DNA of 64,000 bases from an uncultured Planctomycetales bacterium (GCA_964648665.1 CAZYOA010000004.1:52894-116893); one strand, 5' to 3'; positions 12,305 through 42,020 are shown, counted from the first letter of the stretch. Numbers and translations: made by a program. The notes: a model not told the origin generated them from the sequence alone.

Positions 12305-12477
12305 TAGGTTCTTTTGTAATTCTATTATTTCCAATATGTTGCAGCAAAATTTCCATAAAAAAATAAAATCTTGATAAAATGTAGTTTTGATATAAAATAA
12401 AGAGCTTGTTTTTTTGTTAGAGATGTAATTGTTTGGCGTTATTAAAGATAAGATAAACTTACCTACAAGGGAGTACG

Positions 12478-14403
12478 ATGCTTTACGACATCAACGGAAT
12501 TAAGCACGGCGTTACACGTTTTGGAGAGCAAGATGCGCATTTTTTTAAAGAGGGTACGCATTATCGGCTTTATGATAAGCTAGGTTCTCATGAAATGGTG
12601 ATTGATGATCAGCAAGGGACATATTTTGCTGTTTGGGCTCCCAACGCAAGCTCAGTTCATGTTATTGGTGATTTTAATGGCTGGAACAAATCTAGTCATC
12701 CCTTGAGTGTGCGCTGGGATTCTTCTGGGGTTTGGGAAGGGTTTGTTCCTGGAGTTGTAAAGGGTGATGTTTATAAATACTATATTGCGTCAAAAGATAA
12801 CGGGTATTATGAAGATAAAAAAGATCCGTTTGCTTTTTATAATGAAATTTCTCCAAAAACGGCTTCCATTGTTTGGAATACAGATTATCGGTGGAAAGAT
12901 CAAGAGTGGATGAAAACTCGCCAGAAGAAAAATGGACTTGAGTCTCCAATGTCGATTTATGAAGTTCATCTTGGTTCTTGGCGGCGCGTTGTTGAAGAAT
13001 ATAATCGACCCTTAGATTACAAGGAAATGGCTGAAGAATTTGTCGCTTATGTTAAGGAGATGGGTTACACCCATGTTGAATTCCTGCCGGTTATGGAGCA
13101 TCCTTTTTATGGCTCATGGGGATATCAATCTACTGGATATTTCTCGCCAACTTCTCGATATGGCACGCCTCAAGATTTTATGCATTTAATTGATTGTTTG
13201 CATCAAAATGATATTGGTGTCATTTTGGATTGGGTTCCATCTCATTTTCCGTCGGATGTTCATGGCCTTTTTTATTTTGATGGAACGCATCTTTTTGAGC
13301 ATGCAGATCCTAAAAAAGGTTTTCATCCGGATTGGAAAAGCTATATTTTTAATCATAGTCGGGCCGAAGTAAAAGAATTTTTAATTTCAAGCGCTCTTTT
13401 TTGGTTAGATAAATATCATATTGATGGCATTCGCGTTGATGCAGTTGCTTCAATGTTGTATTTAGACTATTCGAGAGAAGAGGGTGAATGGATTCCAAAT
13501 CAATTTGGAGGCCGTGAAAATATTGAGGCGGTTGATTTCTTAAAAACGCTTAACACTGCTGTTTATCAAGATTTTCCTGATGTCCAAATGATTGCTGAAG
13601 AATCTACGGCATGGCAGGGTGTTTCACGTCCAGTTTCTCAAGGTGGACTTGGGTTTGGAATGAAATGGAACATGGGATGGATGCATGATGTTCTTTTGTA
13701 TTTCTCTAAAGATCCTGTTTTTAGGAAATATCACCATAACGATTTAACATTTAGCTTCTTATATACGTTTACAGAAAATTTTACTTTATCGCTTTCTCAT
13801 GACGAGGTTGTTCATGGGAAAGGATCACTTTTGGCAAAAATGCCTGGTGATGATTGGCAAAAATTTGCCAATATGAGACTTTTGTTGGGATATATGTTTG
13901 CTCATCCGGGCAAGAAACTTCTTTTTATGGGAGCCGAAATTGGACAATGGGCTGAGTGGAATCATGAAAAAAGTTTAGAATGGCATCTTTTGCAGTATTC
14001 GCCGCATCAAGGTTTGCAAAAATGGATGAAAGATCTTAATGCTGTTTACAAGAAAGAAGCAGCATTATTTGAAAAAGATTTTGTTCCCGAAGGATTCAAG
14101 TGGATTGATTGTAATGATTGGCAACAAGGAATTGTTAGCTTTGTAAGAACGGGACATGATTGGAACCAAAAAATTGTCGCTATTTGTAATTTTACGCCAG
14201 AAACACGTTTTGATTATCGCTTAGGTATGCCAGAAGCAGGAACATGGAAAGAAGTTTTAAATAGTGATGCAGAAGATTATGGTGGAAGCGGACAGGGTAA
14301 TTTTGGAAGAAAGAAAACAGAGTCAATACCGGCACATGGATGCCAAGATTCTTTTTCGATTACTGTGCCACCCTTAGGAATGCTTTTTCTTAAAAAAGTA
14401 TAG
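12478..14403 (+). CDS. glgB: 1,4-alpha-glucan branching enzyme (GH13)
   Basis: At 641 aa it has a CBM48-like N-terminus, the GH13 catalytic motifs (DWVPSHF, GIRVDAV, EESTAW) and a C-terminal all-beta domain. Confidence 0.9.
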   Translation: MLYDINGIKHGVTRFGEQDAHFFKEGTHYRLYDKLGSHEMVIDDQQGTYFAVWAPNASSVHVIGDFNGWNKSSHPLSVRWDSSGVWEGFVPGVVKGDVYKYYIASKDNGYYEDKKDPFAFYNEISPKTASIVWNTDYRWKDQEWMKTRQKKNGLESPMSIYEVHLGSWRRVVEEYNRPLDYKEMAEEFVAYVKEMGYTHVEFLPVMEHPFYGSWGYQSTGYFSPTSRYGTPQDFMHLIDCLHQNDIGVILDWVPSHFPSDVHGLFYFDGTHLFEHADPKKGFHPDWKSYIFNHSRAEVKEFLISSALFWLDKYHIDGIRVDAVASMLYLDYSREEGEWIPNQFGGRENIEAVDFLKTLNTAVYQDFPDVQMIAEESTAWQGVSRPVSQGGLGFGMKWNMGWMHDVLLYFSKDPVFRKYHHNDLTFSFLYTFTENFTLSLSHDEVVHGKGSLLAKMPGDDWQKFANMRLLLGYMFAHPGKKLLFMGAEIGQWAEWNHEKSLEWHLLQYSPHQGLQKWMKDLNAVYKKEAALFEKDFVPEGFKWIDCNDWQQGIVSFVRTGHDWNQKIVAICNFTPETRFDYRLGMPEAGTWKEVLNSDAEDYGGSGQGNFGRKKTESIPAHGCQDSFSITVPPLGMLFLKKV

Positions 14404-18987: not shown

Positions 18988-19015
18988 TTGAAAACATTGC
19001 TTTTCACGGTACAAT
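18988..19015 (+). promoter_or_regulatory. candidate sigma70 promoter for the chemosensory cluster (TTGAAA - 16 nt - TACAAT)
   Basis: The -35 is ttgaaa (18988-18993) and the -10 is tacaat (19010-19015). It lies about 20 nt upstream of the RBS aaggag and the ATG at 19035. Confidence 0.45.
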
Positions 19016-19034: not shown

Positions 19035-19409
19035 ATGTATAAAATTCTTTTTGTTGAAGATGACGTCGATTTTTTAGCGGTTATGCAAAAACGATTAACC
19101 GAACAAGGATATCAAGTTCTTGCTGTTTCTGATTGTTTTAGTGCTACTCAGCTTGCTCATAGCGAGAAGCTGGATGTTATTATTTTAGATTTAAAAATTC
19201 CAGGTGGTGGAGGAGTTAATACGCTTAAGAATTTGAAAATTTCTGTTCATACAAGCGGCATTCCGGTTATTATTTCAACAGCGTCAGATGATCCAGAAGA
19301 AAAAAAGGTTGTTTTAGCTCAAAATCCATCGGCTTATTTAGAAAAACCATACGATTCTGAACTTTTAATAAAAACCATTGAAGAGATAATGTCAAATAAG
19401 CATGAGTAA
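19035..19409 (+). CDS. stand-alone response regulator receiver (CheY-like)
   Basis: It has the full REC residue set: DD (FVEDDVD), D (IILDLKIP), S/T (ISTAS) and K (LEKPY). It overlaps the next gene by 8 nt. Confidence 0.85.
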   Translation: MYKILFVEDDVDFLAVMQKRLTEQGYQVLAVSDCFSATQLAHSEKLDVIILDLKIPGGGGVNTLKNLKISVHTSGIPVIISTASDDPEEKKVVLAQNPSAYLEKPYDSELLIKTIEEIMSNKHE

Positions 19410-21555
19410 GCTTTTAGATGCCTTAACTGAGAGAAATTTAGTTACTTACGAGCAAATTAAAGATGCTCGAATTAAGCAAGTAGGGGCTAAAAAATCGATT
19501 TCTGAGCTTTTAGTAGACATGGATTTTGTTCAGGAAGAAGATTTAGCTCGCGTTGCTTCTGATGTTTTTGGCCTTCCTGTTTGTAATCTTTCCCAAGAAG
19601 AAATTGATCCTGAAGCTATAAAAAAACTTCCTTTTGAAAAAGTTAAACGTTATGGCGTTTTTCCTTTTCGCATTGAAGATGGTCAGCTTTTGCTTGCCAT
19701 GTGTGATCCTCAAGATTTTGTTGCTTTAGAAGATATTAGTGCTATTTGCGGAATGGGCACAAGACCTGTTTTAGCAAAAAAGAGTGATATTGAAAGTCAT
19801 ATTGAAAAACATTATCTTTTGGATGATTTGACGTATGATTTGATTAAGAATATGACCGAAGATATTAAGATTGAAGTTGTTCAAAAAGATTCAGAAAAAG
19901 AAATATTTCAGGATGAATACTTTATTGGGCAAAAGTCTCCTATTGTCAGACTTTGTAATTTAATTGTTTCGGATGCGGTTAAGGCGAGAGCTAGCGATAT
20001 TCACATTGAGCCATACGAAAAAATTGTAGAGGTGCGCTATCGCGTTGATGGATATTTAAAAAATATTATGAAAATTCCTAAAAGGTTGCATCCTCCTTTG
20101 GCAGTGCGTATCAAGATTTTAACGGACCTTGATATTGCAGAAACACGAAAACCTCAAGACGGAAGAAGTAGTATTCTAATTGAAGGACGCAAGGTTGATT
20201 TACGCGTTTCTACAATTCCAACGTTTCATGGGGAAAAGATTGTTATTCGTCTTCTTGATCAAAAAAAATCGAGGGTTGAATTAGATAGTATTGGCTTTGA
20301 ATCTCAAAATTTAGAAATATTTAAAGAAGCTATTAATAGGCCTCAGGGCATTATTTTGATTACTGGCCCGACGGGAAGTGGTAAAACTTCGACATTGTAT
20401 GCAGCTCTTAATAATATTAAGAATGAAACAAAGAACATTGTTACGATTGAAGATCCTGTTGAGTATTTGATTCAAGGCGTTAATCAAATTCAAGTTAATC
20501 CTGTCAAAAATGTTACTTTTTCAACCGGATTAAAAAGTATTCTGCGTCAAGATCCAAATGTTATTTTGGTTGGAGAAATTCGTGACAAGGAAACAGCAGA
20601 TATTGCTTTTCGCGCATCTTTAACAGGGCATTTGGTTTTTTCTACTTTGCATACAAATAATGCGCTTTCAACAGTTGTTCGTCTTTACGATATTGGTCTT
20701 GAGCCGTATTTGGTTGGATCTTCTGTCATTTTAATTGTTGCACAGAGATTAGTTCGTTTGATTTGTAAGAATTGTAAGAAAGAGTATGAGCCTGGTGAAA
20801 AAGAAAACGAACGATTCGGGGCTTTTATCAAAAGACATGATATTAAGAAATTGTATCGCGCAGAAGGATGTGAGCATTGTAACTATATGGGTTTTTCTGG
20901 GCAAACTGCTATTTTTGAAATTATGCAGATTGATGCAAAAGTTAAGAATTTAATATCTCAAAAAGCTTCACAGGCTGATCTTTGGGAAGTTGTAAGGCAA
21001 AACGGTCTTCAAACTTTAGCTGAGGCAGGTGTTCAGAAAATTATTGATGGATTGACAACAATTGAAGAAATTGAACGTGTTTGTCAGCTTTCATCTGAGC
21101 AAACTTTAACAGAAGCGAGCAATCAAAAGAAAGCTTCTAAAGTTCCAGGTAGTATTTCAAGGGAACTTCATAAGCAAGTAAATAAAAAATTTCGTATTCT
21201 TATTGTTGATGACGAACCAGATATTCGAGAAGTGTTAAAAATGCGTCTCACTGTCGAGGGATATACTGTTTTAGAGGCAGAGGATGGTTCGGAAGGTGTC
21301 AAGCGGACATGTCAAGAAAAGCCAGATTTGGTTATTATGGATATTATGATGCCTGTTATGAATGGCATTGAGGCAACAAAGAAAATACGTGATAATCTTG
21401 AGATTGCAGCAACACCTGTTGTTATGTTGACGGCAAAAGCGACTAAAGAAGATGAGCTTCAGGGACTTGATGCTGGAGCTGACGATTATCTGAGTAAGCC
21501 TTTTGATGAAGATAAGCTTTTAGCAAGAATTCGAATGCTTCTTCGAAGAAGATAA
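19402..21555 (+). CDS. GspE/PilB-type secretion/assembly ATPase with N-terminal MshEN-like domain and C-terminal receiver (REC) domain
   Basis: The N-terminus has two tandem about 24-aa motifs resembling the c-di-GMP-binding MshEN motif (KLLDALTERNLVTYEQIKDARIKQ and SISELLVDMDFVQEEDLARVASDV). Walker A GPTGSGKTS, Asp box VTIEDPVEY, Walker B ILVGEIRD and His box HLVFSTLHTN are present. A tetracysteine motif (CKNC...CEHC) is also present. The C-terminal 120 aa form a complete REC (ILIVDDEPD, MDIMMP, LTAK, SKPF). Confidence 0.85.
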   Translation: MSKLLDALTERNLVTYEQIKDARIKQVGAKKSISELLVDMDFVQEEDLARVASDVFGLPVCNLSQEEIDPEAIKKLPFEKVKRYGVFPFRIEDGQLLLAMCDPQDFVALEDISAICGMGTRPVLAKKSDIESHIEKHYLLDDLTYDLIKNMTEDIKIEVVQKDSEKEIFQDEYFIGQKSPIVRLCNLIVSDAVKARASDIHIEPYEKIVEVRYRVDGYLKNIMKIPKRLHPPLAVRIKILTDLDIAETRKPQDGRSSILIEGRKVDLRVSTIPTFHGEKIVIRLLDQKKSRVELDSIGFESQNLEIFKEAINRPQGIILITGPTGSGKTSTLYAALNNIKNETKNIVTIEDPVEYLIQGVNQIQVNPVKNVTFSTGLKSILRQDPNVILVGEIRDKETADIAFRASLTGHLVFSTLHTNNALSTVVRLYDIGLEPYLVGSSVILIVAQRLVRLICKNCKKEYEPGEKENERFGAFIKRHDIKKLYRAEGCEHCNYMGFSGQTAIFEIMQIDAKVKNLISQKASQADLWEVVRQNGLQTLAEAGVQKIIDGLTTIEEIERVCQLSSEQTLTEASNQKKASKVPGSISRELHKQVNKKFRILIVDDEPDIREVLKMRLTVEGYTVLEAEDGSEGVKRTCQEKPDLVIMDIMMPVMNGIEATKKIRDNLEIAATPVVMLTAKATKEDELQGLDAGADDYLSKPFDEDKLLARIRMLLRRR

Positions 21556-21583
21556 ATTAAAAAAGAAAAGTAAAATAATTTTT

Positions 21584-23110
21584 ATGGCTTTTCCGCCAGA
21601 ATTAAGAATAAAATTTAAAGACCTCATTGCCCATCGAAGTGGTCTCTATTTTCGAGATCATGATTTAAGAAATTTAGAAAGCGCTATTGAGCAGAGAATT
21701 AAAGTAAAAAAATTTGATTCTTTCGCAACGTATTATTCCCATCTTATTGTATCTGATAAAAAAGATGATGAATTTCGTGAGCTTTTAAATCTATTAACAA
21801 TCAATCATACCTATTTCTTTAGAAATAAGCCTCATTTTATTACTCTTCGAGAAAAAGTTTTACCTGCAATCATAGAGAGAAAAAGACGAGAACATTTAAG
21901 GAATTCAGATCAACGTCTGCAGCTTCGTATTTGGAGCGCTGGATGCTCATCTGGAGAAGAGCCGTATTCGATTGCGATGACTATTGCTGATCTTATCGAC
22001 GATTTGGAGAATTGGGATATTAACGTGCTTGCAACGGATGCTTCTCAAACTGTTTTGGCAAAAGCACAAAAAGGTATTTATCAAGCCAGTTCTATGCGTC
22101 ATGTTGATGATGTGCGTTGTCAGAAATACTTTACTCAGAAGACGAATAATAAGGGTAAATGTGAATATGAAATTTCAAGCGATATTAAGAAAATGGTATC
22201 GTTTGGATTTTTTAATTTGATGGATGAAGATTACCCTATGGGATTTGATATTATTTTTTGCCGCAATGTTGTTATTTATTTTGAGCTTAAAACAACAATT
22301 GAAGTTATGAGTAAGTTTTACAATAGCCTTGTTGACGATGGATGCATGTTTATTGGTTATTCAGAGACGTTGCAGTTTATTAAAAATAAGTTTCAGATGG
22401 CAACATGGAAAGATGCGATTTATTATTTTAAGAATATTGACTCACAAAACATACCTTTGCAAGGTGAACAAGTAGGGGAAGAAAAAAAACCAGTTGATAT
22501 TGATAAGGTTTTAGGAGAAATTGCGCGCGCGGAAGCTTTGGCCAAGATGGAAAGTCAGCCAATAGCTGGAGAGGCACCTAAAAAGCTTGAAGATATTATT
22601 GTTGCGGTCACGAAACATCTTCATCTTAAAGAGTATGATCAGGGTCTTGATTTAATTACGCAAGGGAAAGCAATCGACGAGAAGTCAACGGATTTGTTTT
22701 ATTTGCAAGCAGAAATATTGATGAATCAGGGTAAAAGTGACGAGGCAAAAAATAGTTTAGAGGAAGCTCTAAAGCTAAACTCTCTTTTTATTCCTGCACA
22801 TTATTTAAATGGATGTATTTGTTTTGAAGAAGACCGATTTGAAGATGCTCAAGAAAGTCTTCGCAAAGCGCTTTTTCTAGATAATGATTTTTTGATCGCC
22901 CATTTCTATTTAGCTCAAGTGTTTAAGCAAGAAGATAAAGCTGATGATGCTATTCGTCAATACAGAAACACTTTAAAGTTGTTGTCATCAAAATCTTCAG
23001 ACACTATAATAGCCTACAGCGGCGGATTTAATGCGGCAACATTAATGAGTGTTTGTCGTGATAATTTGGAACGCCTAAAGTTTGGAATATTTACGGAGAA
23101 GGAAGAATAA
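21584..23110 (+). CDS. cheR: CheR-type chemotaxis methyltransferase with C-terminal TPR repeats
   Basis: CheR motifs are present (NHTYFFRN, IWSAGCSSGEEPYSIAM, FCRNVVIYF). The C-terminal about 150 aa are TPR-like. Confidence 0.85.
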   Translation: MAFPPELRIKFKDLIAHRSGLYFRDHDLRNLESAIEQRIKVKKFDSFATYYSHLIVSDKKDDEFRELLNLLTINHTYFFRNKPHFITLREKVLPAIIERKRREHLRNSDQRLQLRIWSAGCSSGEEPYSIAMTIADLIDDLENWDINVLATDASQTVLAKAQKGIYQASSMRHVDDVRCQKYFTQKTNNKGKCEYEISSDIKKMVSFGFFNLMDEDYPMGFDIIFCRNVVIYFELKTTIEVMSKFYNSLVDDGCMFIGYSETLQFIKNKFQMATWKDAIYYFKNIDSQNIPLQGEQVGEEKKPVDIDKVLGEIARAEALAKMESQPIAGEAPKKLEDIIVAVTKHLHLKEYDQGLDLITQGKAIDEKSTDLFYLQAEILMNQGKSDEAKNSLEEALKLNSLFIPAHYLNGCICFEEDRFEDAQESLRKALFLDNDFLIAHFYLAQVFKQEDKADDAIRQYRNTLKLLSSKSSDTIIAYSGGFNAATLMSVCRDNLERLKFGIFTEKEE

Positions 23111-23113
23111 GAA

Positions 23114-23596
23114 ATGAAAGCCATTGTTTTTGTTTTAGAAGAAAAATCGTATGCAATAAACATTTCTCAGATTTCAGAAGTTATCCGGATGAGAGAGATG
23201 ACGCCGATTCCAGATAGTGCGGATTTTGTTGAAGGCATTATTAGTCTCCATGGAAAAGTTATTCCAATTATAAATTTAAGAAAAAAGATTGGAATTGTGG
23301 CTCAACAAGGCACCACGCAGTGTCGCGTTATTGTTGTAAAAGTCAATAATCAGTTGATCGGAATTATTGTTGATAGCGTTTCTGATGTTGTTGCGTTTGA
23401 AGATGAATCCGTTGTTCCTCCCGACGATGTTTTAAAAGAAACTGTGTATTTAACAGGAGTTGTTAAGTCTGAATCAAAGATTATTTTGATTCTTGATATT
23501 GAAAAACTTTTAAGTGAAGATGCTCAGAGAAGCGCTGAAAAGATTCATAAGCATGTTGAGGTAAAAAGAAAGGCAAGCGTTGATGGAAAGCGATGA
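23114..23596 (+). CDS. cheW: CheW coupling protein
   Basis: A 160 aa CheW-like domain (YAINISQISEVIRM...GIINLRGKVIPIINLRKK). Confidence 0.8.
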   Translation: MKAIVFVLEEKSYAINISQISEVIRMREMTPIPDSADFVEGIISLHGKVIPIINLRKKIGIVAQQGTTQCRVIVVKVNNQLIGIIVDSVSDVVAFEDESVVPPDDVLKETVYLTGVVKSESKIILILDIEKLLSEDAQRSAEKIHKHVEVKRKASVDGKR

Positions 23597-24104
23597 AAAG
23601 ATTATCATTGAAGTTGATGATCAAGATTTATTAAATCAAGACGATAAAAAGCACACTATCCGAGTCTTAACATTTTGTCTTGGTGGCGAGAATTACTGTA
23701 TTGATATTAATCACGCCAAAGAAGTTGTCCGTTTGCCAGAAATAACAAAAGTGCCCAATGCCCCCGCCTTTATTGTGGGGATTATAAATTTAAGAGGTGA
23801 GGTCTTATCTGTTTTAGATATTCATTATTTCTTTGGATTAGAGAAAAAAGGAAAACCGCAGGATGCGCGTTTGATTGTTACAGATGTTGTTGGTGAATCT
23901 TTAGGAATCATGGTTGATAGAATCAAGGATGCGATTGATATTGATCAGCTATCAATTCAGCCGCCGCTGGCGACGCTAAAAGGGAACTTGTCAGCATATA
24001 CAAAAGGTCAGATACAGCTCGGCGATGAGATTTATATTCTTTTGGATATTTATAATATTTTAAATTGTGATGAAATAAAAAATTTGCGAAAAGGAAATAT
24101 TTAA
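23580..24104 (+). CDS. cheW: CheW coupling protein (second copy)
   Basis: A CheW-like domain (YCIDINHAKEVVRLPEITKVPNAPAFIVGIINLRGEVLSVLDI). It overlaps the first cheW. Confidence 0.8.
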   Translation: MMESDEKIIIEVDDQDLLNQDDKKHTIRVLTFCLGGENYCIDINHAKEVVRLPEITKVPNAPAFIVGIINLRGEVLSVLDIHYFFGLEKKGKPQDARLIVTDVVGESLGIMVDRIKDAIDIDQLSIQPPLATLKGNLSAYTKGQIQLGDEIYILLDIYNILNCDEIKNLRKGNI

Positions 24105-24138
24105 ATTTTAATATTTATTTAAAAAGGGGAGTAAAAAA

Positions 24139-25563
24139 ATGAAGAAAAAAGTTTTAATTGGGTTTATTTTTATTTTATTAATGGTACTGGTTCTTGGAAT
24201 TGTTTCACTTGTTAGCATTAATCATATTAATGAAAGCTGGGATGATGCCCAAAAAGAAGGTTCGGCTTTGGTAGATTTTAGTCAAGATTTTGCTCTTGCT
24301 TTTCAGCATTGTCGAACAGATGAAAAAGATTTTATTTTGCGACATGAGGCAAAAGGTTTTAAATTTTCTAAAGATAAGTACATCGAGGATCGATTTAAAA
24401 GCAGAGATGTTAAGGAAGCTAGAAAAGCTTTGCAAGAACTTAAAAATATTAAAGTAATAATAGAAGAGGAGTATCTTGAAAGGCTAAAAATTGAAAAGCT
24501 AGAAGAGTTATTTAATATTTATGTTTCGCAAGTATTAGCCATGGTTGATGGTTTAGAGAAATCTTTAGAAAATGAGCACGAAGATGGATCATTAGGAAAT
24601 AAAGATTCTAATTTTGCTCAAACTGCTGCATTAATAAAGCCTATCGTTAAAGAGATTTTAGAAGTAGGGCATGAAGATTACAAGCATCATGTTGCCGAAG
24701 CTCATGCTATTGAGGATTCTGCTACCTCTACAATCTACATATCGCTGTTTGTTGTTATGTTGCTGGGGGCGTTTGTTGTATTTTATATCCTTGGTGTTAT
24801 TAGCAGAGCTATTAAAACATTGACAGGTGTTGTTCAGCGAGTTACTTCTGCTTCAACCGAGATTTTAGCTGCTAGTCAGCAACAAACATCAGGAGCGCGA
24901 GAACAATCTTCGGCAGTTGCAGAGACGACATCCTCGGCTAAAGAGCTTTCAGCCACTTCTGAACAGGTTGGGGACAGTATTCGTCGCGTTTCTGAAGCGG
25001 CAGGTCATGCGTTAGCTGGTATGGCAAAGATTAAAGACTCTATTGGAAAGACAAGTGAAATGATTGCTTCTTTAGGAGAGAAGTCTCAGAAAATTGGAAA
25101 AATTACATCTCTTATTGATGATGTGGCAGATCAGACAAATTTGCTAGCAGTTAATGCTTCTATTGAGGCGGCTCGTGCTGGAGAGCAAGGGCGCGGATTT
25201 ACAGTTGTTGCTGATGAAATTCGAAAGTTATCAGATTCAACAGCAAAATCGACAACAGACATTACGTCTTTGATTGAAATTATTCAGCATGAAATGACAA
25301 ATTCCATTATGTCTATGGAGGGAAGTTTGCGTAGCGTTGATGATGAAGCAAAGCTTGCTCAGCAAACAGCAGAGCGGTCTAAGGAAATTGCAATGAGTGC
25401 AAATCAGCAAATTAGCGGATCAAAACAAATTTCTGAGGCCATGGGCAATATTGATGAGGCGATGAAGCAAATTGTTGCTGGTGCGCAACAAACACAGCAA
25501 GCGGTTAAAGATCTTTCTGCTTTGGGAGAAGAGCTTAATAAATTATCCAAAGAGCTTGAATAA
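24139..25563 (+). CDS. methyl-accepting chemotaxis protein
   Basis: It has an N-terminal TM, a roughly 170 aa sensor region and a second TM. An MCP signalling domain follows, including the highly conserved segment [33 protein letters not shown]. Confidence 0.85.
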
Positions 25564-25582
25564 ATATAAACAAGGAATTTAA

Positions 25583-27697
25583 GTGGCATTTGATAAAGCA
25601 AAATATTTAGAAGGCTTTAAAGCGGAAGTTAAAGAGCTTTTGCAAGATTTGAGTTTGGGGCTTTTAAAGCTGGAGAAAAAGCCGACAAACAAAAAGCTTC
25701 TTGAAAGCCTTATGCGTAAAGCACATACTATCAAGGGATCAGCGACGATGATGGGATATAAACGTATTGCAGACATATCTCACAACATGGAGGATGGGCT
25801 TGATCGTGCCTTACAAGGAGAGTTAAGTTTAAAGAAGAATCATTTTGATATATTGCTTAAATGTTTAGATGCGATTGATCCTCTTTTGGAGGATAAAGTA
25901 ACATGGCAGGACAAAGGCATTGATGCTTCTTTTGTTGAGAATATTTGTGCTGAGGCGAAGAGCGCTTTTTGTGAAGATGAAATTTCTGAAGAATCTAAAA
26001 AGAAAGAGTCAAAAGAAGAGCTTGCTAAGAAAGAAGAAATTGCTGAAGAAGATTGGAAAGAGGCGAAGACGGAAGATAGTATTCGAATTAATGTTAGCCA
26101 GTTAAATAAACTTGTTAATCTTTCTGGAGAAATGCTTGTTAGTAAAATCCGTTTAAAAGAGCTTGTTTCAGGGCTACAACAGAAAGTGTCAGAAGTTCCT
26201 GATATTGGAGAATCTTTTATTGAAATTAGCAAAGGATTGACTTCCCTCGGAGACACAATGGATTTCTTGACTTCTAATATGCAAGAAGAGGTTATGAAAT
26301 CTCGAATGATTCCAATATCGTATTTATTTAATACTTTTCCGAGAGCAATGCGTGATTTAGCGCGACAAAAAGGAAAAAATATTCAGCTTGAAATTAATGG
26401 ACAAAATACGTATTTGGATAAAACGATTGTTGATCAGGTTAAGGATCCTATCATGCATTTGTTGCGTAATGCCGTCGATCATGGTGTTGAGACGATAGAG
26501 AAAAGACAGGAAAAAGGAAAGCCAGAAGAAAGCAAGATTGCACTTTCAGCTTATCAAGAAGGATCTTTGGTTGTTATTGAAGTTTCTGACGATGGAAATG
26601 GTATCGATGTTGAAAAAGTAAAACAGCATGCTGTTAGCAAAGGGCTTGTTTCCGAAAGTCGTATTAATGATATGATCGATGACCAAGTGTATCAGTTGCT
26701 TTTTTCTCCAGGTTTTAGCACGGCAGAGGAAGTAACAGAAACGTCTGGGCGTGGCGTAGGATTAGACGTTGTTCGTGAAAATATTGTTCAGCTTAAAGGC
26801 ATGATTGAGGTTCAATCAGATCCAGGGAAAGGAACAAGGTTTATTATTAAGCTTCCTTTAACGCTTGCCATCACCGAAAGTCTTTTGGTTGCTGCGGGTA
26901 GCGATATGTTTGCAATTCCCATTGAATCTGTTGTTGAAACAATTCGAATTAAAACTGATGAGATTAAAACGATTGAAGCAAGAGATGTTGTTGTTGTTCG
27001 AGGGCATATTTTGCCTTTGGTTCGTATTTCAGATATTTTTGGTATTTCTCGAAAAGGAATTTTTGAAAAGAATTTTTCGCCTGTTGTTATTGTTCAATCT
27101 GTTGAAAAAAGAATTGCCATTTTAATTGATGATTTGATAGGCCGACAAGAAATTATTACAAAAGCGATTGGCGATCCTTTAAAGAATGTTCGCGATATCG
27201 CAGGAGCCACAATTTTAGGAAATGGAAAAGTTATTCTTATTTTAGATGTTCCATCGATTATTGATTCTGCTGAAGGGGTTATTGTTAAAAGACCAATTGC
27301 TGTGTTAAAGCCAGCTATTCAAGGGAAAAAGAAAAAGACAATTCTTTTAGCCGAGGATGTCTTGAGCACAGCGATGCTTGAAAAAAATATTCTAGAATCT
27401 TCAGGCTTTTCTGTTGTGATTGCACGTGATGGAAAAGAAGCTTTGGACCGCGCCGCTCAAGAAACGTTTGATCTTGTTATTTCTGATGTTTTGATGCCGC
27501 GAATGGATGGATTTGAACTTGCAACAAACTTAAGAAAAAGCAAGACACATAAGGGTGTTCCTATTATCATGGTAACAACGAGAGAAAAAGATGAAGATAA
27601 GCGCCGAGGTTTAGAGGCTGGGGCGAATGCCTATATTTTAAAGAAAGATTTTACATCAGAGATTTTATTAGAAACGATTGAACGATTGGTTGGATAG
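25583..27697 (+). CDS. cheA: CheA histidine kinase fused to C-terminal receiver (CheA-REC hybrid), GTG start
   Basis: It contains an Hpt domain (HTIKGSATMMGY), a dimerisation domain, a HATPase domain (HLLRNAVDHG...GRGVGLDVV) and a CheW-like domain. The C-terminal REC has the full residue set: D (LISDVLMP), T (MVTT) and K (LKKDF). Confidence 0.9.
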   Translation: MAFDKAKYLEGFKAEVKELLQDLSLGLLKLEKKPTNKKLLESLMRKAHTIKGSATMMGYKRIADISHNMEDGLDRALQGELSLKKNHFDILLKCLDAIDPLLEDKVTWQDKGIDASFVENICAEAKSAFCEDEISEESKKKESKEELAKKEEIAEEDWKEAKTEDSIRINVSQLNKLVNLSGEMLVSKIRLKELVSGLQQKVSEVPDIGESFIEISKGLTSLGDTMDFLTSNMQEEVMKSRMIPISYLFNTFPRAMRDLARQKGKNIQLEINGQNTYLDKTIVDQVKDPIMHLLRNAVDHGVETIEKRQEKGKPEESKIALSAYQEGSLVVIEVSDDGNGIDVEKVKQHAVSKGLVSESRINDMIDDQVYQLLFSPGFSTAEEVTETSGRGVGLDVVRENIVQLKGMIEVQSDPGKGTRFIIKLPLTLAITESLLVAAGSDMFAIPIESVVETIRIKTDEIKTIEARDVVVVRGHILPLVRISDIFGISRKGIFEKNFSPVVIVQSVEKRIAILIDDLIGRQEIITKAIGDPLKNVRDIAGATILGNGKVILILDVPSIIDSAEGVIVKRPIAVLKPAIQGKKKKTILLAEDVLSTAMLEKNILESSGFSVVIARDGKEALDRAAQETFDLVISDVLMPRMDGFELATNLRKSKTHKGVPIIMVTTREKDEDKRRGLEAGANAYILKKDFTSEILLETIERLVG

Positions 27698-27714
27698 CTG
27701 ATAAAGGAGTTTGC

Positions 27715-28089
27715 ATGGAAAAGAAAGTTTTAATCATAGAAGATTCAAAGACGGATGCGAATATTTTAGTAGATTTATTGCGAGAAGAAGGGTTGATTGC
27801 GGAAGTTGCCTCGACAGGGAAAAGAGGTCTTGAGCTTGCACAGGAAATGGTTCCAGATCTTGTTCTTCTTGATTTGATGCTTCCTGATATGTCTGGACTG
27901 GATATTTGTTCTGAGATTAAGAGTGATAATCGGCTCAAAAATACTATGGTTGTCGTTGTTAGCAGTCAAGATGATATTAAGGTTATTACGGAGGCTTTTC
28001 ATCGGCATGCCGATGATTATATTTTGAAACCACCTGTGCCAGAATTTTTAATTAAGAAAATAAAACTATATATTGGAAATCGAAATTAA
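27715..28089 (+). CDS. cheY: CheY-like response regulator
   Basis: It has a complete REC (LIIEDSKTD, LLDLMLP, VVSS, LKPP). Confidence 0.8.
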   Translation: MEKKVLIIEDSKTDANILVDLLREEGLIAEVASTGKRGLELAQEMVPDLVLLDLMLPDMSGLDICSEIKSDNRLKNTMVVVVSSQDDIKVITEAFHRHADDYILKPPVPEFLIKKIKLYIGNRN

Positions 28090-28094
28090 TAAAA

Positions 28095-29126
28095 ATGGAT
28101 AATAAAATACGAGTTTTGATTGTTGATGATTCTGCTTTAATGCGAAAAGCATTAGAGGAAATTTTGACATCAGATGAAAATATTGAAGTTGTTGGTTTTG
28201 CAAAAGACGGACAAGAGGCATGTGAAAAAGTACGTGTCTTAAAGCCAAACGTTATTACAATTGATATTAACATGCCGGTTATGAATGGTCTTGATGCGAT
28301 ACAGGCGATTATGTCTGATGTTCCTACGCCTATCATTGTTGTTAGCAGTATGGATGCGAGAATTGTTGCGAAAGCACTCGTTATTGGAGCTATGGATTTT
28401 GTTGTTGTTTCAGATGAAATTGACGAAGTTTCTAAGAGCTTGATTGAAAAAGTTAAGATTTCATCAAATGTGCGACCGTTAAAGCGGATACCTCCTAAAA
28501 TCTTTGAACTAAAAGAAAAAAAGGAAAAAGATTTTAAAAAAGAGTTTTCTAGTGAGAAAGATCTAGATTTTGTTGTTTCAATCGGAGCTTCAACGGGAGG
28601 GCCTCAGGCTCTTCAGGTTGTTCTTTCTTCTTTGCCCGAAAGTTTCAATGCTGGCATATTGATCGTTCAGCATATGTCTGATGGTTTTATTGGAGGCTTG
28701 GCAGATTGGCTTTCGTCTGTAACGCCACACAAAGTTGAACTTGCACGGACAGGTGATATTTTGAAGAATGGAAAAATCTTTTTAGCACCGGATCGATACC
28801 ATTTATGCATTGATGATCATGGCGTTATTCAGTTAAAAAAAGGATCTTTAAGTAAGTCAGGATTTGTTCCTTCTATAGATGAGACGATGGCTTCTGTTGG
28901 CGAAAGTTTTGGCTCGCGTTCAATTGGAGTTATCATGACAGGCATGGGAAGAGACGGGTCAGTTGGGATAGAAACGCTTAAGCGATGCAAAGGAAAAACA
29001 ATTGCTCAAGATGAGGAAACATCTGTTATTTTTGGTATGAATAAAGAAGCCATTGATAAGGGGTGTATTGATTGCATCGTTTCATTGGATAAAATTAGCG
29101 AAACAATCTATAATATAATATCTTAA
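28095..29126 (+). CDS. cheB: protein-glutamate methylesterase CheB (REC + methylesterase)
   Basis: An N-terminal REC (VLIVDDSALMR, TIDINMP) is followed by a CheB catalytic domain (GASTGGPQAL, HMSDGF). Confidence 0.9.
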   Translation: MDNKIRVLIVDDSALMRKALEEILTSDENIEVVGFAKDGQEACEKVRVLKPNVITIDINMPVMNGLDAIQAIMSDVPTPIIVVSSMDARIVAKALVIGAMDFVVVSDEIDEVSKSLIEKVKISSNVRPLKRIPPKIFELKEKKEKDFKKEFSSEKDLDFVVSIGASTGGPQALQVVLSSLPESFNAGILIVQHMSDGFIGGLADWLSSVTPHKVELARTGDILKNGKIFLAPDRYHLCIDDHGVIQLKKGSLSKSGFVPSIDETMASVGESFGSRSIGVIMTGMGRDGSVGIETLKRCKGKTIAQDEETSVIFGMNKEAIDKGCIDCIVSLDKISETIYNIIS

Positions 29127-29144
29127 AAACTTAAGGATAGATTT

Positions 29145-29504
29145 ATGAATAAAAAAGTTTTAATCATCGATGACAGTGCTTTTGTTTTAAATATGCTTAA
29201 AGATATGCTAGAAGAGAAATGTTTTTCTTGCTTGACAGCTGAAGATGGCGAAAAAGGAGTTGCAGTTGCAATTAGCGATAAACCAGATATCGTTATATGC
29301 GATACGCTTTTACCTGGAATAGATGGGTTTGAAGCATGTCGGCAAATAAGAGAGCAGTTAAATTCTGAAACAACAAAAATTATTGTTATGACAGGAACAG
29401 CTGATGCTATTGATGCTGTTAAAGCGCGAGAAGTTGGTGCGGATGATTATTGTGCCAAAACAAGCGATTTTAGTGTTTTAATAAAAGCGATAGAGAAAAT
29501 ATAA
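29145..29504 (+). CDS. stand-alone response regulator receiver
   Basis: It has a complete REC (LIIDDSAF, VICDTLLP, MTGT, AKT). Confidence 0.8.
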   Translation: MNKKVLIIDDSAFVLNMLKDMLEEKCFSCLTAEDGEKGVAVAISDKPDIVICDTLLPGIDGFEACRQIREQLNSETTKIIVMTGTADAIDAVKAREVGADDYCAKTSDFSVLIKAIEKI

Positions 29505-32500
29505 ATGAGCTTTAAAAAGCAATGCCTTAAAACAAAATCGTGTGCAATCTTCTTGATGATCGCGTTTTTAATTATAATTACAGGAAGTATTGTCGTTCCT
29601 AAAATGGCTCAGTATGGTAAAGAAGAAATTGCTCAAGAAGCACAAGCGATTCTTTTTGCTTTAACCAATAGTGTTAATCGTGAAATTGATGAAGTTCATC
29701 GAGTTGCCGTTGCTTTGTCTGGAGATGCTTCATTGAAGAATGCTTTGCAGTCATCTGAATTTGAAGTTTTAATGACAGCAAATAGTGTTCTTGATCGTTA
29801 TGCAGATGCTCTAACAGATACGGTTTGCTATGTTCTTAATACAGAAGGCTTTACAGTTGCATCTTCAAATCATGAAAACATTGATAGTTTTGTGGGAAAA
29901 GACTACAGTTTCCGTCCTTATTTTCAAATGGCAAAGCAAGATGGATATGGTGAATATTTCGCTTATGGTGTAACTTCAAGAAAAAGAGGATTTTATGCAT
30001 CGGCTGTCATTAGAAATGAGTTTAATAGCGTCATAGGAGTCGTTGTTATGAAGCGAGATGTTGATGTTCTTGCTAAGGATTTTTTAGAGTTCCATCCTTG
30101 CTTTTTGATTGATCCTAATGGCATTATTTTTCTTTCAAGCAACCCAAGTTTAGTTTTAAGGTCTTTATGGCCATTAACAGCTGAGCAAGAGAAAGATCTT
30201 ATTGAGAGCAAGCAGTTTGGTGTAGGACCTTTTCAATCTATTCTTTTAGAAAAGATTCAAGTTGACGAAAAAGTTGAATTAGAAAAGAAATCTTTTCTTG
30301 CTTTTCGCCATCCTATTAAAACTAAAGGTTGGTCTTCTCTAATCTTGATGCCATCAAAACGAATAACTTTTTATAAATTCTTCGGAATTATAGTTTTCTT
30401 ATTCCTTATTGTTTTAGTAACCGTGGCTTTTATTATTGTATCTATTGCAAATAGCTCTGCTGAGAAATCGAGAGGGTTTGTAGCTATTGTTGAGTCTTCA
30501 TCAGATGCCATTGTTGGAAAGACGGTTGAAGGAAATATTATAAGCTGGAATAAAGGCGCTGAAAGAATGTATGGGTATTCAGCTAAAGAAATTATAGGAA
30601 AGTCAATTGCAATTTTAGCTAAAGATGATCAAAAACAAGAAATTGTAAATATTTTAAAAAGAATTAAGTTGGGTGAGAGGATTGAAAACTTTGAAACAGA
30701 GCGGATTACTAAAGATGGACGCAAGATTGTCGTATCTTTAAACATTTCGCCTATTCGAGACTCTAAGGGCAATGTTGGGGAGGTGGCAACAATTGCGCGT
30801 GATGTTACTCAAGAGAAAAAAGCTCAAGAAGTTTTAAAAGAAACACAGGAAGCTTTAAAAGAAAAAGCCTGGGGTTTAGAAAAAACAAATGATGCGATTA
30901 AAGCACTTTATTCGGATCTTTCGGATAAGACTCAGAAGCTGGAGGAATCACGAGAAGAGATTGCTGCAGCCAAAGATTCCGCTGAACGAGTTTTTGATCT
31001 TAGCCCGAGTGCAATTTTTACAGTCAATAAAGACAAGATTATTACAAAATGGAATAAAAAAGCAGAAGATACAACAGGATATTCTTCTGAAGAAATTATA
31101 GGTAAAGATTGTTCTATTTTTGCGGATTACCCGTGTAAAGAAATTTGTGGACTTTTTTCTGATCAGATCGAAAAACCAGTTTCGTCTAGAGAATGCCGCA
31201 TTCGAAGAAAAGATGGAGAGTTTAGAACTATTGCAAAGAATGCGGATCTGCTTTACGATTTACATGGAAATGTTTCTGGAGGCATAGAAAGTTTCGAAGA
31301 TATTACAGATCGCAAGAAAGCTCAAGAAAGTCTAGCTGAGAGTGAAGAAAAATATCGTCATTTAGTTCAGAATGCAAATAGTATTATCTTGCGAATCAAT
31401 GATCAAGGAGAAATTACATTTTTCAATGAGTATGCGGAGGAATTTTTCGGATTTACTCAAGAAGAAATTGTTGGAAAACATGTTATTGGAACTGTTTTAC
31501 CTGAGCAGGACGGGGTGGGTCACGATTTAAATGAAGTGGTTTCACGTATCTTGCAAGATCCTAAGAAATATGCGAATAATGAGAATGAAAATATTTGTAA
31601 AGATGGTCGACGAGTTTGGGTTCGATGGTCAAATAAAGTTGTTTTAGATTCAAGAAAAGATGGAGGAAGCGAAATTTTATGCGTGGGAACAGATATCACA
31701 GAGATTAAAGAATTTCAAAATGAACTTATAAAGCTTTCTCGTGCAGTTGAGCAAAGTCCGAGTGTCGTTGTTATTACAGATTTAGAGGGTAATATTGAAT
31801 ATGTAAATCCAAAATTCTGCGAGTTAACGGGATATTCTTTTGAAGAAGCGGCTGGCCAGAATCCTCGAATTTTAAAATCTGGTGACAAGCCTGAAGAATT
31901 TTATAAGGATATGTGGGATACGATTCAATCTGGAAAAGAATGGCGGGGAGAATTTTGCAACAAAAAGAAAAATGGTGAAGAGTATTGGGAGCTTGCTTTG
32001 ATATCGTCAATACGAAATGATCAAGGAGAAGCAACGCATTTCTTGGCTGTTAAAGAAGATGTTACGGCGCGTAAAGCTGCTGAAGATAAAGCTAGAGATG
32101 CTATTCGGCTTAAGAGTGAATTTATTTCTGTTGTTTCTCATGAATTGCGTACTCCTCTGACGGCAATTAAAGAAGGTATTTCTATTGTTGCTGATGGTGT
32201 GACTGGCGAGGTTAATCCTGATCAAGCAGAATTTTTATCTGTTGCGAAGAGAAATGTTGAAAGATTGTCTCGGTTAATTAATGATGTTTTAGATTTCCAG
32301 AAACTCGATGCTCAGCAGATGACATTTGATTTTGAATTACAAAATATTAATTTGTTAGTTCAAGAAGTTGGCAAAACAATGGAGAAGATTGCGCAAAAAG
32401 ATGGATGTGAATTAAAAACAGAATTAGATGAGACCATCCCAGAAATTAATATGGATCATGATCGTGTTACTCAAGTTGTAACAAATTTAGTTAATAATGC

Positions 32501-32813
32501 GATTAAATATGCGGCGGGTAAGCCGATAACGATTAAAACATCACATCAAGGCAATACTATCCAAGTTTCTGTTATTGATCAAGGTGAAGGCATTAAAGAA
32601 GATGATTTTGAGAAGCTTTTTCAAACATTTAGCCAATTGAAAAAAGGTAAAGAAAGAAAAACAGGAAGCACGGGACTTGGTCTTGCGATTTCAAAGAAAA
32701 TTGTCGAAAGCCATGGTGGAAAGATTTGGGTTGAGTCTGAATATGGAAAGGGAAGTTCTTTTTCTTTTCTTATTCCTGTTGAAGAGAGAAGAAAGAGTGA
32801 AAGCGAGACATAA
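29505..32813 (+). CDS. sensor histidine kinase: periplasmic Cache-like domain, TM, four PAS/PAC modules, HisKA + HATPase
   Basis: At 1102 aa it has a Cache-like segment (residues about 40-290) flanked by TM helices. Repeated PAS signatures are present. The H-box is [11 protein letters not shown] and the ATPase has N/G1/G2 boxes ([25 protein letters not shown]). It has no receiver domain. Confidence 0.85.
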
Positions 32814-32824
32814 AGGAGAGGGTT

Positions 32825-33193
32825 ATGGCAAAGAAAATTTTAGTTGTTGATGATGAGCCGGATATATTAAAAGTTGTTATTTTTCGTCTTCAAAAAGAGG
32901 GGTACGAGGTCAAAACAGCTATTGATGGGCAGATGGCGATAGATATGCTCTCTGAAGAAAGGCCTGATATGGTTCTTTTAGATATTACGCTTCCGCTTCT
33001 TAATGGATTTGAAGTGTGCAAGAGAATAAAATCAGATGAAAATCTTAAAGATATTCCGGTTATGTTTTTAACAGCATCAACAGCGTCTGAAGGATTTAAA
33101 GAAAGAGCTGAGAGTGTTGGCTCCCAAGGCTACATGTTTAAACCATTTGATTATGAGTTATTATTAGAAAAAGTAAAAAAATTAATAAATTAG
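32825..33193 (+). CDS. stand-alone response regulator receiver
   Basis: It has a complete REC (LVVDDEPD, LLDITLP, LTAS, FKPF). Confidence 0.8.
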   Translation: MAKKILVVDDEPDILKVVIFRLQKEGYEVKTAIDGQMAIDMLSEERPDMVLLDITLPLLNGFEVCKRIKSDENLKDIPVMFLTASTASEGFKERAESVGSQGYMFKPFDYELLLEKVKKLIN

Positions 33194-33202
33194 GAGAATA
33201 AG

Positions 33203-33562
33203 ATGGAAAAGAAAATTTTAGTTGTTGAGGATGAGCTAGATATTCAAAAAATTTTAAAAGCTAATTTAGAAGCAGCTGGGTATGTAACGTTTGTTGCAGA
33301 TAATGCTAAGCAAGGACTAGAGCTTATTAAAAAAGAGCAGCCGGTAGCGGTTATTCTTGATGTCATGCTTCCAGATGAAAACGGTTTTGATGTTTGTCGA
33401 AAAATTAAGAATGACAATGATGAAATAAAGGTATTAATTTACACCGGAAAGCTTGAAGCTGTTGATGCTAGACGAGCTAGAGAAGCAGGGGCAGACGATT
33501 TTACGGTTAAAACAGTTGATTTTAAATATATCTTAGAATCGATTGAGAAATTAACTTCATAA
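33203..33562 (+). CDS. stand-alone response regulator receiver
   Basis: It has a REC fold with an ED acidic pair (VVEDELD), then ILDVMLP, YTGK and VKT. Confidence 0.8.
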   Translation: MEKKILVVEDELDIQKILKANLEAAGYVTFVADNAKQGLELIKKEQPVAVILDVMLPDENGFDVCRKIKNDNDEIKVLIYTGKLEAVDARRAREAGADDFTVKTVDFKYILESIEKLTS

Positions 33563-33581
33563 GAAACGTTATATTTTAAGA

Positions 33582-34175
33582 ATGACCTCTGTTTTTTTTG
33601 AAAAGCAGGGGTTATTTATTTTTAGGTCAAAAATGTTTAAAATGCGCATATATCTGTACTTAATTCTTTTGGTTCTTCCGTTATTAATAGGGTGTGATTT
33701 TATTTATGGGATTATTCAAAAGCAAGCAGCACATGAAAAGGCGTTGATTGGCGAGATTGTTCCTTTTGTGCAGAATGAAAAAGTTGAAGAAATTCAAAAA
33801 CTTTTGAAGGTTAATGGTTGTTCCCCTGGAAAAATTGATGGAAAAATGGGTCAAAAAGTGAGAGAAGCGATTGCTAGTTTTCAGGAGGATCGCGGACTAG
33901 ACGTTAATCGGTATATTGACAAGCCGACTTGGGAAGAATTAAATTTATATACAGATTTAGGGCTTGTTTTTGATGGAGAAATTGATATTGCTTTTATTCA
34001 GCAAATTCTTACGAGAGAGGGATTTGATCCTGGCAAGATAGATGGAAAGCTTGGATCTAAAACAATTGAAGCTATTAAGAGGTTTCAAGATCAGAATGGT
34101 TTAAAGCCAGATGGAAGAATAGGGCCAAATACGTTGTCTATCTTTGTTGACTATATCATGACTTCAGAGTACTAG
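33582..34175 (+). CDS. lipoprotein with two PG_binding_1 (peptidoglycan-binding) repeats
   Basis: An internal Met (MFKMRIY...LLIGC) gives a lipobox, so the true start is probably about 33636. Two repeats of about 60 aa (GCSPGKIDGKMGQKVREAIASFQEDRGL and GFDPGKIDGKLGSKTIEAIKRFQDQNGL) match the PG_binding_1 pattern. Confidence 0.6.
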   Translation: MTSVFFEKQGLFIFRSKMFKMRIYLYLILLVLPLLIGCDFIYGIIQKQAAHEKALIGEIVPFVQNEKVEEIQKLLKVNGCSPGKIDGKMGQKVREAIASFQEDRGLDVNRYIDKPTWEELNLYTDLGLVFDGEIDIAFIQQILTREGFDPGKIDGKLGSKTIEAIKRFQDQNGLKPDGRIGPNTLSIFVDYIMTSEY

Positions 34176-41651: not shown

Positions 41652-42020
41652 TTAGTTTTTTAGAAAAATCTTTATTTTTTCTAATAGAATTGTTAAATCA
41701 ACAGGTTTAATGAGGTAGTCATCTGCGCCGACATCGTTACCAATTTCGATGTCTTTTTCTTTATCGCGAGAAGTTAGAAGAATAATAGGAATGTTTTTGT
41801 GTTTTGGATCATTCTTGAGAAGTTGGCAAAGATTGTATCCGTTAATGATTGGCATCATAACGTCTAGAATAATGAGGTCTGGATATTTATCCATGGCCAT
41901 TTGAAGACCATCGGCAGCTTTTGTTGCAGATAAAACAGTGTATCCATTTTCTGGAAGCTTGGTTGCTAAAAGTTTTGTTTGAACAGGATCATCATCAATA
42001 ATTAAAATCTTTTTTATCAT
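41652..42020 (-). CDS. stand-alone response regulator receiver (divergent from the GAF-ANTAR gene)
   Basis: It has a complete REC (LIIDDDPV, IILDVMMP, LTSR, IKPV). Confidence 0.8.
   Translation of the reverse strand: MIKKILIIDDDPVQTKLLATKLPENGYTVLSATKAADGLQMAMDKYPDLIILDVMMPIINGYNLCQLLKNDPKHKNIPIILLTSRDKEKDIEIGNDVGADDYLIKPVDLTILLEKIKIFLKN

Follow-up and report, generated by a model that had tools for sequence, protein, structure and literature searches.

A PilB-type ATPase with a C-terminal receiver domain in Candidatus Omnitrophota, and the chemosensory cassette most likely inserted beside it

INTRODUCTION

A stretch of DNA of 64,000 nucleotides, deposited as an uncultured Planctomycetales bacterium (GCA_964648665.1, CAZYOA010000004.1:52894-116893; the whole stretch is called the window below), contains between positions 19035 and 34175 a block of 14 genes, all on the + strand. 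Among them is the gene of a PilB/GspE-family ATPase that carries a receiver domain (REC) of its own at the C-terminus (ATPase-REC, 19402-21555, +). It is followed by eight chemosensory (che) genes and by the gene of a sensor histidine kinase. An earlier note on this DNA had described the block as a chemosensory supercluster built around the ATPase, whose receiver could be phosphorylated by CheA. The locus raises two questions: which kinase is the partner of the ATPase receiver, and which machine does the ATPase power?

Our answer, which we hold to have a little better than an even chance, is that the ATPase extends pili under phospho-control, exerted mainly by the classical histidine kinase, with a possible added input from the Che proteins. 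The window belongs to Candidatus Omnitrophota, near Ca. Aceula: the proteins nearest to the ATPase are from Candidatus Omnitrophota, and the top match, from Ca. Aceula lacicola, is 76% identical.

RESULTS

The ATPase and its receiver domain

Pfam divides the 717-residue ATPase into an MshEN domain, a T2SSE core (E=1.6e-134) and a C-terminal Response_reg domain (E=1.3e-33). Residues 2-561 align with solved PilB structures, that of Geobacter (5zfr) at E=1e-134 and also those of Thermus PilF and Myxococcus PilB; PilT structures match the ATPase core only, at about 1e-33. Against NCBIfam the best match was the type IVa PilB equivalog TIGR02538, with 604.1 bits at a cut-off of 675.65, and the GspE model TIGR02533 scored 581 bits at a cut-off of 630.25. 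By sequence the ATPase is closest to PilB and is of the PilB type, but not assignable as a PilB or a GspE equivalog. The earlier assignment to the GspE/PilB family with a C-terminal receiver was therefore sustained, and the full-length structure match narrows it to the PilB type.

The T2SSE core (residues 178-559; 19933-21078, +) contains the Walker A motif GPTGSGKT, the Asp box EDPVEY, the Walker B motif DPNVILVGEIRD and the His box TGHLVFSTLHTN. In an alignment of 174 family sequences these are invariant or nearly so, and the four cysteines of the zinc-binding motif (C455, C458, C490 and C493) are present in 174/174. The residue set of the receiver (residues 599-711; 21196-21534, +) is complete as well, with the acidic pair D603/D604, the phospho-acceptor D647, T677 and K699. 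Of these, D604, D647 and T677 are found in all 174 sequences, K699 in 172 and D603 in 171. Since the nucleotide motifs and the D-D-D-T-K set of the receiver are both nearly invariant, both halves of the protein appear to be under purifying selection. The earlier note had left room for two outcomes that would overturn it, a C-terminal region without the D/T/K set and a PilT-like retraction ATPase transcribed from its own promoter. The full set is present, and the ATPase is PilB-like and translationally coupled into the operon by an overlap of 8 nt with the stop codon of the preceding receiver gene.

In the AlphaFold model the N-terminal domain, the ATPase and the receiver stand out as three confidently predicted modules, and the linkers at residues 141-176 and 564-586 are of low confidence. 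Residues 598-716 fold as a (beta-alpha)5 receiver, five strands alternating with five helices (pLDDT 80-93). In the model the receiver thus looks like a tethered domain on a flexible linker; across the 174 sequences the linker measures 10-81 residues. The best matches of the receiver are receivers of the OmpR/PhoB and PleD types, not CheY. Such receivers are the usual partners of HisKA kinases, and it is to these that the ATPase receiver is similar in sequence. Assignment of a kinase partner from the pairwise identities of the eight receivers of the cluster was abandoned, because the values (20-38%) were too flat.

Degeneration of the c-di-GMP motif

MshE and many PilB proteins bind cyclic di-GMP (c-di-GMP) through two 24-residue motifs (PMC5013675). 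The N-terminus of the ATPase was tested for this pattern, RLGxx(L/V/I)(L/V/I)xxG(L/V/I)(L/V/I)xxxxLxxxLxxQ, occurring twice with a 5-residue spacer. The corresponding tandem motif (residues 3-55; 19408-19566, +) is degenerate: 5 and 4 of the 11 positions match in the two halves, as compared with 10 and 11 of 11 in Geobacter PilB. The RLG triplet has disappeared from both halves in 167/167 family sequences. The changes L21K/R and Q24V/I resemble the non-binding XpsE, and positions equivalent to L29 and Q61 show the kinds of change seen in that protein (compared with PMC5013675). The motif is degenerate throughout the family, and loss of c-di-GMP binding is predicted from these residues. We infer that phosphorylation has taken over from c-di-GMP as the regulatory input.

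Elsewhere the window encodes, immediately downstream of RNase Y and YmdB, a stand-alone PilZ-domain protein of 130 residues (6507-6899, +), possibly a receptor for c-di-GMP; the PilB-like ATPase of the same genome seems to have lost its c-di-GMP motif.

The ATPase-REC family and its gene neighbours

The domain combination MshEN, T2SSE and REC was found in at least 120 protein clusters, almost all of them from Omnitrophota. In the family tree the Omnitrophota proteins form one clade, apart from the canonical PilB of the same phylum. Loci were collected in two ways. A scan of genome contigs with an alignment of the full-length ATPase, whose patterns fell on Walker A and the Asp box, yielded 80 loci and was swamped by ordinary PilB; eight of these had a tblastn match extending past residue 700, and a true C-terminal fusion was present in four (L001, L002, L004 and L027). 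A scan of metagenome contigs with an alignment of the family-specific N-terminus yielded 75 loci. Neighbouring genes were annotated by phmmer searches whose queries were domains taken from the window itself, and the counts given below refer to 45 distinct complete ATPases that share less than 90% identity with one another.

The receiver is fused to the ATPase in 44 of the 45 distinct loci, and the exception looks like a split open reading frame (ORF). A single-domain receiver is encoded directly upstream in 27/42, and a HisKA kinase lies within eight genes of the ATPase in 31/45. Hybrid kinases and stand-alone Hpt genes were also present at several loci. Che genes, by comparison, were nearby in five of the 45 (L085, L090, L091, L094 and L154). 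Two of these, L090 and L091, had been picked for co-occurring ATPase and CheA matches and represent a biased sample; in the unbiased metagenome sample che linkage amounts to about 2/38 loci, which we estimate to be a weak enrichment over chance. As the kinase is conserved and the che genes are rare, the conserved candidate for the phosphodonor is a classical kinase, and the proposal that the cluster was built around a chemosensory pathway did not survive the survey.

These counts bear on the alternative that CheA-REC is the main phosphodonor of the ATPase receiver, so that an adapting chemosensory array would drive the motor without a free CheY-like intermediary. In favour of this alternative, the five che-linked loci occupy five separate positions in the tree, and the che cassette lies variously upstream of, downstream of or inside the module. 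Against it, 40 of the 45 distinct loci are without che genes, every one of the che-linked loci has kept its HisKA kinase, and the receiver of the ATPase is of the OmpR/PleD and not of the CheY type. On this and the evidence on the cassette given below we regard CheA as an unlikely main donor.

At three loci (L098, L104 and L119) a stand-alone Hpt protein directly follows ATPase-REC; hybrid kinases are encoded near the ATPase of L119, whereas the contigs of L098 and L104 are too short to judge. A stand-alone Hpt beside ATPase-REC suggests a phosphorelay of several steps in place of simple two-component transfer.

C-terminal fusions were also seen outside Omnitrophota, in metagenome-assembled genomes (MAGs) of Frankiaceae (L004, 3836-6136), Mycobacteriales (L027, 1828-4284) and a deltaproteobacterium (L002, 1510-3852). 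Since the actinobacterial and deltaproteobacterial fusions branch outside the Omnitrophota clade, the fusion appears to have arisen more than once. In two further deltaproteobacterial MAGs (L006 and L015) a HisKA kinase and a single-domain receiver precede an ordinary PilB, and PilT-like ORFs follow; this arrangement is the unfused counterpart of the pairing of receiver and PilB.

Probable insertion of the che cassette

The locus was compared with four syntenic relatives, whose ATPases are 76% (Ca. Aceula lacicola), 74% (a second MAG), 60% (Ca. Aceula meridiana) and 59% (a fourth genome, L088) identical to that of the window. All five share the same flanks, genes of glycogen and trehalose metabolism: the glycoside hydrolase families GH13, GH57 and GH77 upstream, and HAD with GH65 and/or thiolase downstream. 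In the relatives the order is REC, ATPase-REC, Cache/PAS kinase, REC, REC and a peptidoglycan-binding protein, with the upstream REC missing from L088. The gene maps of the four relatives contain no che genes at the syntenic position. Orthologues of the core and flanking genes are 51-89% identical to those of the window, except for the first receiver, REC1, in L088 (33%), and the che proteins have no counterpart. The kinase orthologues (53-68% identical) directly follow ATPase-REC in L081, L084 and L088, and those of the two receivers behind the kinase are 61-79% (REC4) and 62-84% (REC5) identical. The peptidoglycan-binding protein closes the module in the Aceula-like group only (L081, L084, L087, L088, L093, L112, L114 and L157).

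Since the four relatives keep the module without che genes, the eight-gene cassette (21584-29504) has most likely been placed exactly between ATPase-REC and the kinase by insertion. We therefore consider this Wsp-like cassette most likely a later addition in the window's lineage, as judged from synteny. The Cache/PAS kinase is the conserved neighbour of ATPase-REC, and ATPase-REC predates the cassette at this locus. In the family tree the window's ATPase is sister to those of the two closest che-less relatives, and the best non-self homologue of CheA-REC is 63% identical, as against 76% for the ATPase. GC content and GC content at third codon positions gave no foreign signature for the cassette relative to the core genes, and no repeats or scars were found at its junctions. 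The supercluster of the earlier note is real as a tight co-directional block with a full Che set, but the four relatives lack the chemosensory part of it.

Two other explanations of the difference between the window and its relatives were considered. Loss of the cassette in the relatives, rather than gain, was set aside as less parsimonious, as it would take at least three precise deletions in place of one insertion. An assembly chimera was ruled out by identical gene order in independent JGI and ENA assemblies.

The persistence of an intact ATPase-REC without che genes in all four relatives is a further argument against CheA as its main donor. It might even be that the cassette and the ATPase/kinase module are independent, the cassette occupying a permissive junction and signalling only to its own receivers and to unknown targets. 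In Ca. Aceula meridiana (L087) the junction between ATPase-REC and kinase holds an unrelated ORF of 193 residues without a Pfam match (12213-12794), and the junction therefore seems to tolerate insertions; moreover, the cassette is complete and self-sufficient elsewhere, and che linkage is rare in the family. On the other hand, the cassette begins 28 nt behind the ATPase gene and abuts the kinase gene with a gap of 0 nt, spacings that would force co-expression within the operon; separate juxtapositions of this kind recur in at least four other lineages; and signalling genes that are co-transcribed can, in general, be expected to become functionally coupled often. Full independence deserves to be kept in mind as a possibility, on balance a less probable one. 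The same position inside the operon, with no terminator-like site at either junction, speaks for CheA as donor, and direct phosphotransfer from CheA to the ATPase is possible in this genome. The reading that we prefer, with the classical kinase as the principal donor, accommodates a secondary contribution from the cassette.

Composition of the che cassette

The cassette encodes CheR-TPR (21584-23110), two CheW proteins (23114-23596 and 23580-24104), a methyl-accepting chemotaxis protein (MCP, 24139-25563), a CheA-REC hybrid with Hpt, dimerisation, HATPase, CheW and REC domains (25583-27697), a single-domain receiver (REC2, 27715-28089), CheB (28095-29126) and another single-domain receiver (REC3, 29145-29504), all on the + strand and assigned by Pfam. 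CheR-TPR is a marker of clusters of the ACF class (PMC3447774), and its presence together with the CheA-REC hybrid, the CheW proteins, MCP and CheB in one cluster is the complement of a Wsp-like cluster of this class. CheA has a single Hpt domain, not the multiple Hpt domains of ChpA that characterize the Pil-Chp (Tfp) class; the two CheW proteins and two single receivers resemble Pil-Chp in composition only.

Like Wsp and other ACF systems, the cassette has the Wsp gene complement. It differs from them in that a REC-GGDEF (WspR-type) output is encoded nowhere in the window, that two single receivers are included, that the neighbouring multidomain response regulator is an ATPase, and that the whole is most likely a secondary insertion. 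Clusters with CheR-TPR typically use multidomain response regulators as outputs (PMC3447774). ATPase-REC could be such an output of the cassette, which leaves CheA as main donor a minority possibility. However, the cassette brings two receivers of its own, and the set of CheR-TPR, CheW, CheW, MCP, CheA-REC, CheB and REC stands alone in other Omnitrophota (L167 and L168), which speaks against CheA as the main donor. The stand-alone cassette is followed by single receivers and a kinase-GGDEF protein in L167 and by a REC-kinase protein in L168.

The receiver of the window's CheB seems to be without the conserved lysine, reading GAMDFVVVSD where K-P is expected, and its Pfam Response_reg match ends at profile position 98/111.

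The machine powered by the ATPase

The earlier note found no pilin, platform or secretin genes in the window and left the machine open. Indeed, none of these (pilin, GspF/PilC, secretin) was present among the ORFs of at least 110 residues in the 64-kb window, but related loci narrow the choice. In five of the 45 loci, which form one subclade (L129, L132, L141, L143 and L144), ATPase-REC is directly followed by the platform protein PilC (T2SSF). In the first four a pilin with an N-methylation motif and similarity to T2SSG is also encoded, while the contig of L144 ends within PilC. In L132 the pilin is followed by two further N_methyl proteins (minor pilins) and a PilX_N protein. These genes make up a compact type IV filament set, and a filament of that type is the machine of the subclade. 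Most of the Omnitrophota genomes surveyed, in every class, encode type IVa pili, which have been proposed to serve in host attachment (PMC10066038).

It is conceivable that at the kinase-embedded loci, the window's included, ATPase-REC is a signalling or scaffold protein, such as a phosphate sink or an ATP-dependent regulator, and that a canonical PilB encoded elsewhere powers the pili. The window and 40 of the 45 loci have neither PilC nor a pilin next to the ATPase gene, canonical PilB genes without a receiver exist in other Omnitrophota (L005 and L019), and the ATPase scores below the PilB equivalog cut-off. Yet Walker A and B, the Asp box, the His box and the four cysteines are invariant in the kinase-embedded members too, the N-terminal domain of PilB-type ATPases has been kept, and the single clade that the family forms includes the PilC-linked subclade. 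A role other than that of a motor is accordingly quite improbable to us, and the ATPase is treated below as a pilus extension motor.

Gene order and transcription signals

The ORF list and Pfam confirmed the domains and coordinates of all 14 genes (19035-34175), which are separated by -17 to +34 nt. The Che set with CheA-REC, the kinase and the five stand-alone receivers in a co-directional block were thus borne out as previously described, as was the peptidoglycan-binding lipoprotein at the end. REC1 (19035-19409, +; Response_reg E=4e-20) opens the block. In the AT-rich 96-nt gap before it lies a promoter-like site, TTGAAA-16-TACAAT (18988-19015, +), which is a match to the consensus only; between this site and REC1 stands an AAGGAG ribosome-binding site. 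The sensor kinase (29505-32813, +) has a dCache domain, four PAS domains, HisKA and HATPase_c. Behind it are the single-domain receivers REC4 (32825-33193, +) and REC5 (33203-33562, +), and the block ends with a putative lipoprotein with two PG_binding_1 domains and the lipobox LLIGC (33582-34175, +). The true start of the last gene is probably an internal methionine near residue 17-20. A long, AT-rich terminator-like hairpin with a T-run (33580-33617, +; a pattern match only) lies between REC5 and this likely start. It may be the end of the signalling operon, with the lipoprotein gene transcribed separately.

The promoter and terminator scans counted 62 promoter-like sites as compared with 51.8 expected from shuffled sequence, and 12 terminator-like sites as compared with 8.4; these numbers are near expectation, and internal promoters are neither proven nor excluded by them. 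An Rfam scan of the whole 64-kb window gave no riboswitch or leader near the cluster.

Other features of the window

The rest of the window holds housekeeping genes and genes of carbohydrate or nitrogen metabolism. A 6S RNA (SsrS; 72 bits, Rfam gathering threshold 46.4) was found at 3173-3326 (+), just after the gene of the phenylalanyl-tRNA synthetase beta chain. A nitrogen-assimilation block (41652-54476) comprises a single receiver on the minus strand, a GAF-GAF-ANTAR regulator, type III glutamine synthetase, an amidotransferase, NAD synthase and the large and small subunits of glutamate synthase; the pair of receiver and GAF-ANTAR regulator also occurs in the relative L088. Three ORFs, all on the + strand, had no Pfam match at E<=1e-5: 167-1045 (292 residues), 8341-10041 (566 residues) and 61946-63541 (531 residues). 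The second of these is kept at the same position in Ca. Aceula lacicola.

DISCUSSION

The conserved module consists of a single-domain receiver, a PilB-type ATPase with a tethered receiver, at least one HisKA kinase and further receivers. We envisage that in the window the membrane-bound Cache/PAS kinase senses an external, redox or metabolite cue, autophosphorylates and passes phosphoryl groups to D647 of the ATPase receiver and to the free receivers, which may compete for them as sinks or bind the motor as additional partners. Once phosphorylated, the tethered receiver would alter the way in which the PilB ring assembles into a hexamer or turns over ATP, and pilus or pseudopilus extension would be turned on or off in consequence. 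This phospho-input would stand in place of the c-di-GMP input that MshEN supplies in other PilB/MshE ATPases. The che cassette, probably co-transcribed, could give a second, adapting input to the same pool of receivers. Precedents exist for receivers acting in trans on extension ATPases: the REC-only protein DrdR binds both PilB and PilT, whose ATPase activity it raises (PMC13507683), and phosphorylated PixG binds PilB1 (PMC11181946).

Several points weigh against this interpretation. Who phosphorylates whom, and with what effect on the ATPase, is deduced from the genes. Sequence likeness between the receivers points to no kinase partner: the ATPase receiver shares 38% identity with REC4 and 36% with the receiver of CheA, values that do not discriminate. 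The ATPase stays below the equivalog cut-offs of both PilB and GspE. As the window and 40 of the 45 distinct loci lack pilus genes next to ATPase-REC, the motor role is extrapolated from one subclade and from the catalytic residues; and no kinase is encoded near ATPase-REC in that same PilC-linked subclade, so that the neighbourhood does not always reveal the partner. The survey itself is our own phmmer annotation of metagenome contigs, many of them short. Finally, a perfect motif is not always needed for c-di-GMP binding, as Wang et al. noted (PMC5013675).

Among known ATPases, the closest are PilB, MshE and GspE (Geobacter PilB 5zfr/5tsg, Thermus PilF, Vibrio MshE), with which residues 2-561 share the N-terminal domain, the N2D and CTD core, the nucleotide motifs and the tetracysteine motif. 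The window's protein differs from them in its additional C-terminal receiver, joined through a linker that varies in length within the family, and in its degenerate c-di-GMP motif. It also differs in that most ATPase-REC loci lie among two-component genes and not among pil or gsp genes. A receiver fused to an MshEN-T2SSE ATPase is also found in proteins of the type of Geobacter metallireducens Gmet_3473, and the architecture REC-MshEN-T2SSE is listed in Supplementary Table 4 of Wang et al. 2016 (PMC5013675). These proteobacterial proteins, however, have their receiver at the N-terminus; the C-terminal order MshEN-T2SSE-REC is not in that table. Our literature searches turned up no functional work on PilB or GspE proteins that end in a receiver, nor on the form with the N-terminal one.

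DrdR of Xanthomonas, PixG/PixH of the Synechocystis Tax1 system and PilG/PilH of Pil-Chp resemble the present case in that a phosphorylatable receiver contacts the extension ATPase and changes its activity or location (PMC13507683, PMC11181946). Their receivers are separate and diffusible, whereas that of the window is tethered, one per ATPase subunit, with free receivers encoded in addition. A receiver-fused MshEN-T2SSE ATPase has already been catalogued, the chemosensory aspect is specific to a lineage, and the module does not represent a new kind of system.

NtrC-type REC-AAA+ regulators, in which phosphorylation of the receiver controls assembly and activity of a ring ATPase, can serve as a working analogy. 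They differ in fold, domain order and output: NtrC has an AAA+ ATPase that activates sigma-54, the window's protein a RecA-like secretion ATPase that would extend a filament.

The che part of the locus is of less importance than it seemed at first; it serves to show how a mobile cassette of the ACF type can become part of an existing two-component operon. The ATPase may be of wider use. How signalling controls type IV pilus extension is still debated. The receivers known from Pil-Chp, Frz, Tax1 and DrdR are separate proteins, and it is difficult to catch them in contact with PilB. With a receiver on each subunit, a natural PilB would suit biochemical and structural study of phospho-control.

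In its boldest form the proposal would be that the pilus motor of Omnitrophota is itself a response regulator in which c-di-GMP has been replaced, that the module is a master switch for host attachment in these ultra-small, probably host-dependent bacteria, and that in the window's lineage the chemosensory kinase phosphorylates the motor directly. Taken together we find this doubtful. The genome survey that proposed type IVa pili for host attachment makes no mention of chemotaxis and two-component systems (PMC10066038), nor of the ATPase-REC module. Given the proposed role of these pili, the module is a candidate regulator of pilus-mediated host attachment, and so of that lifestyle, in Omnitrophota.

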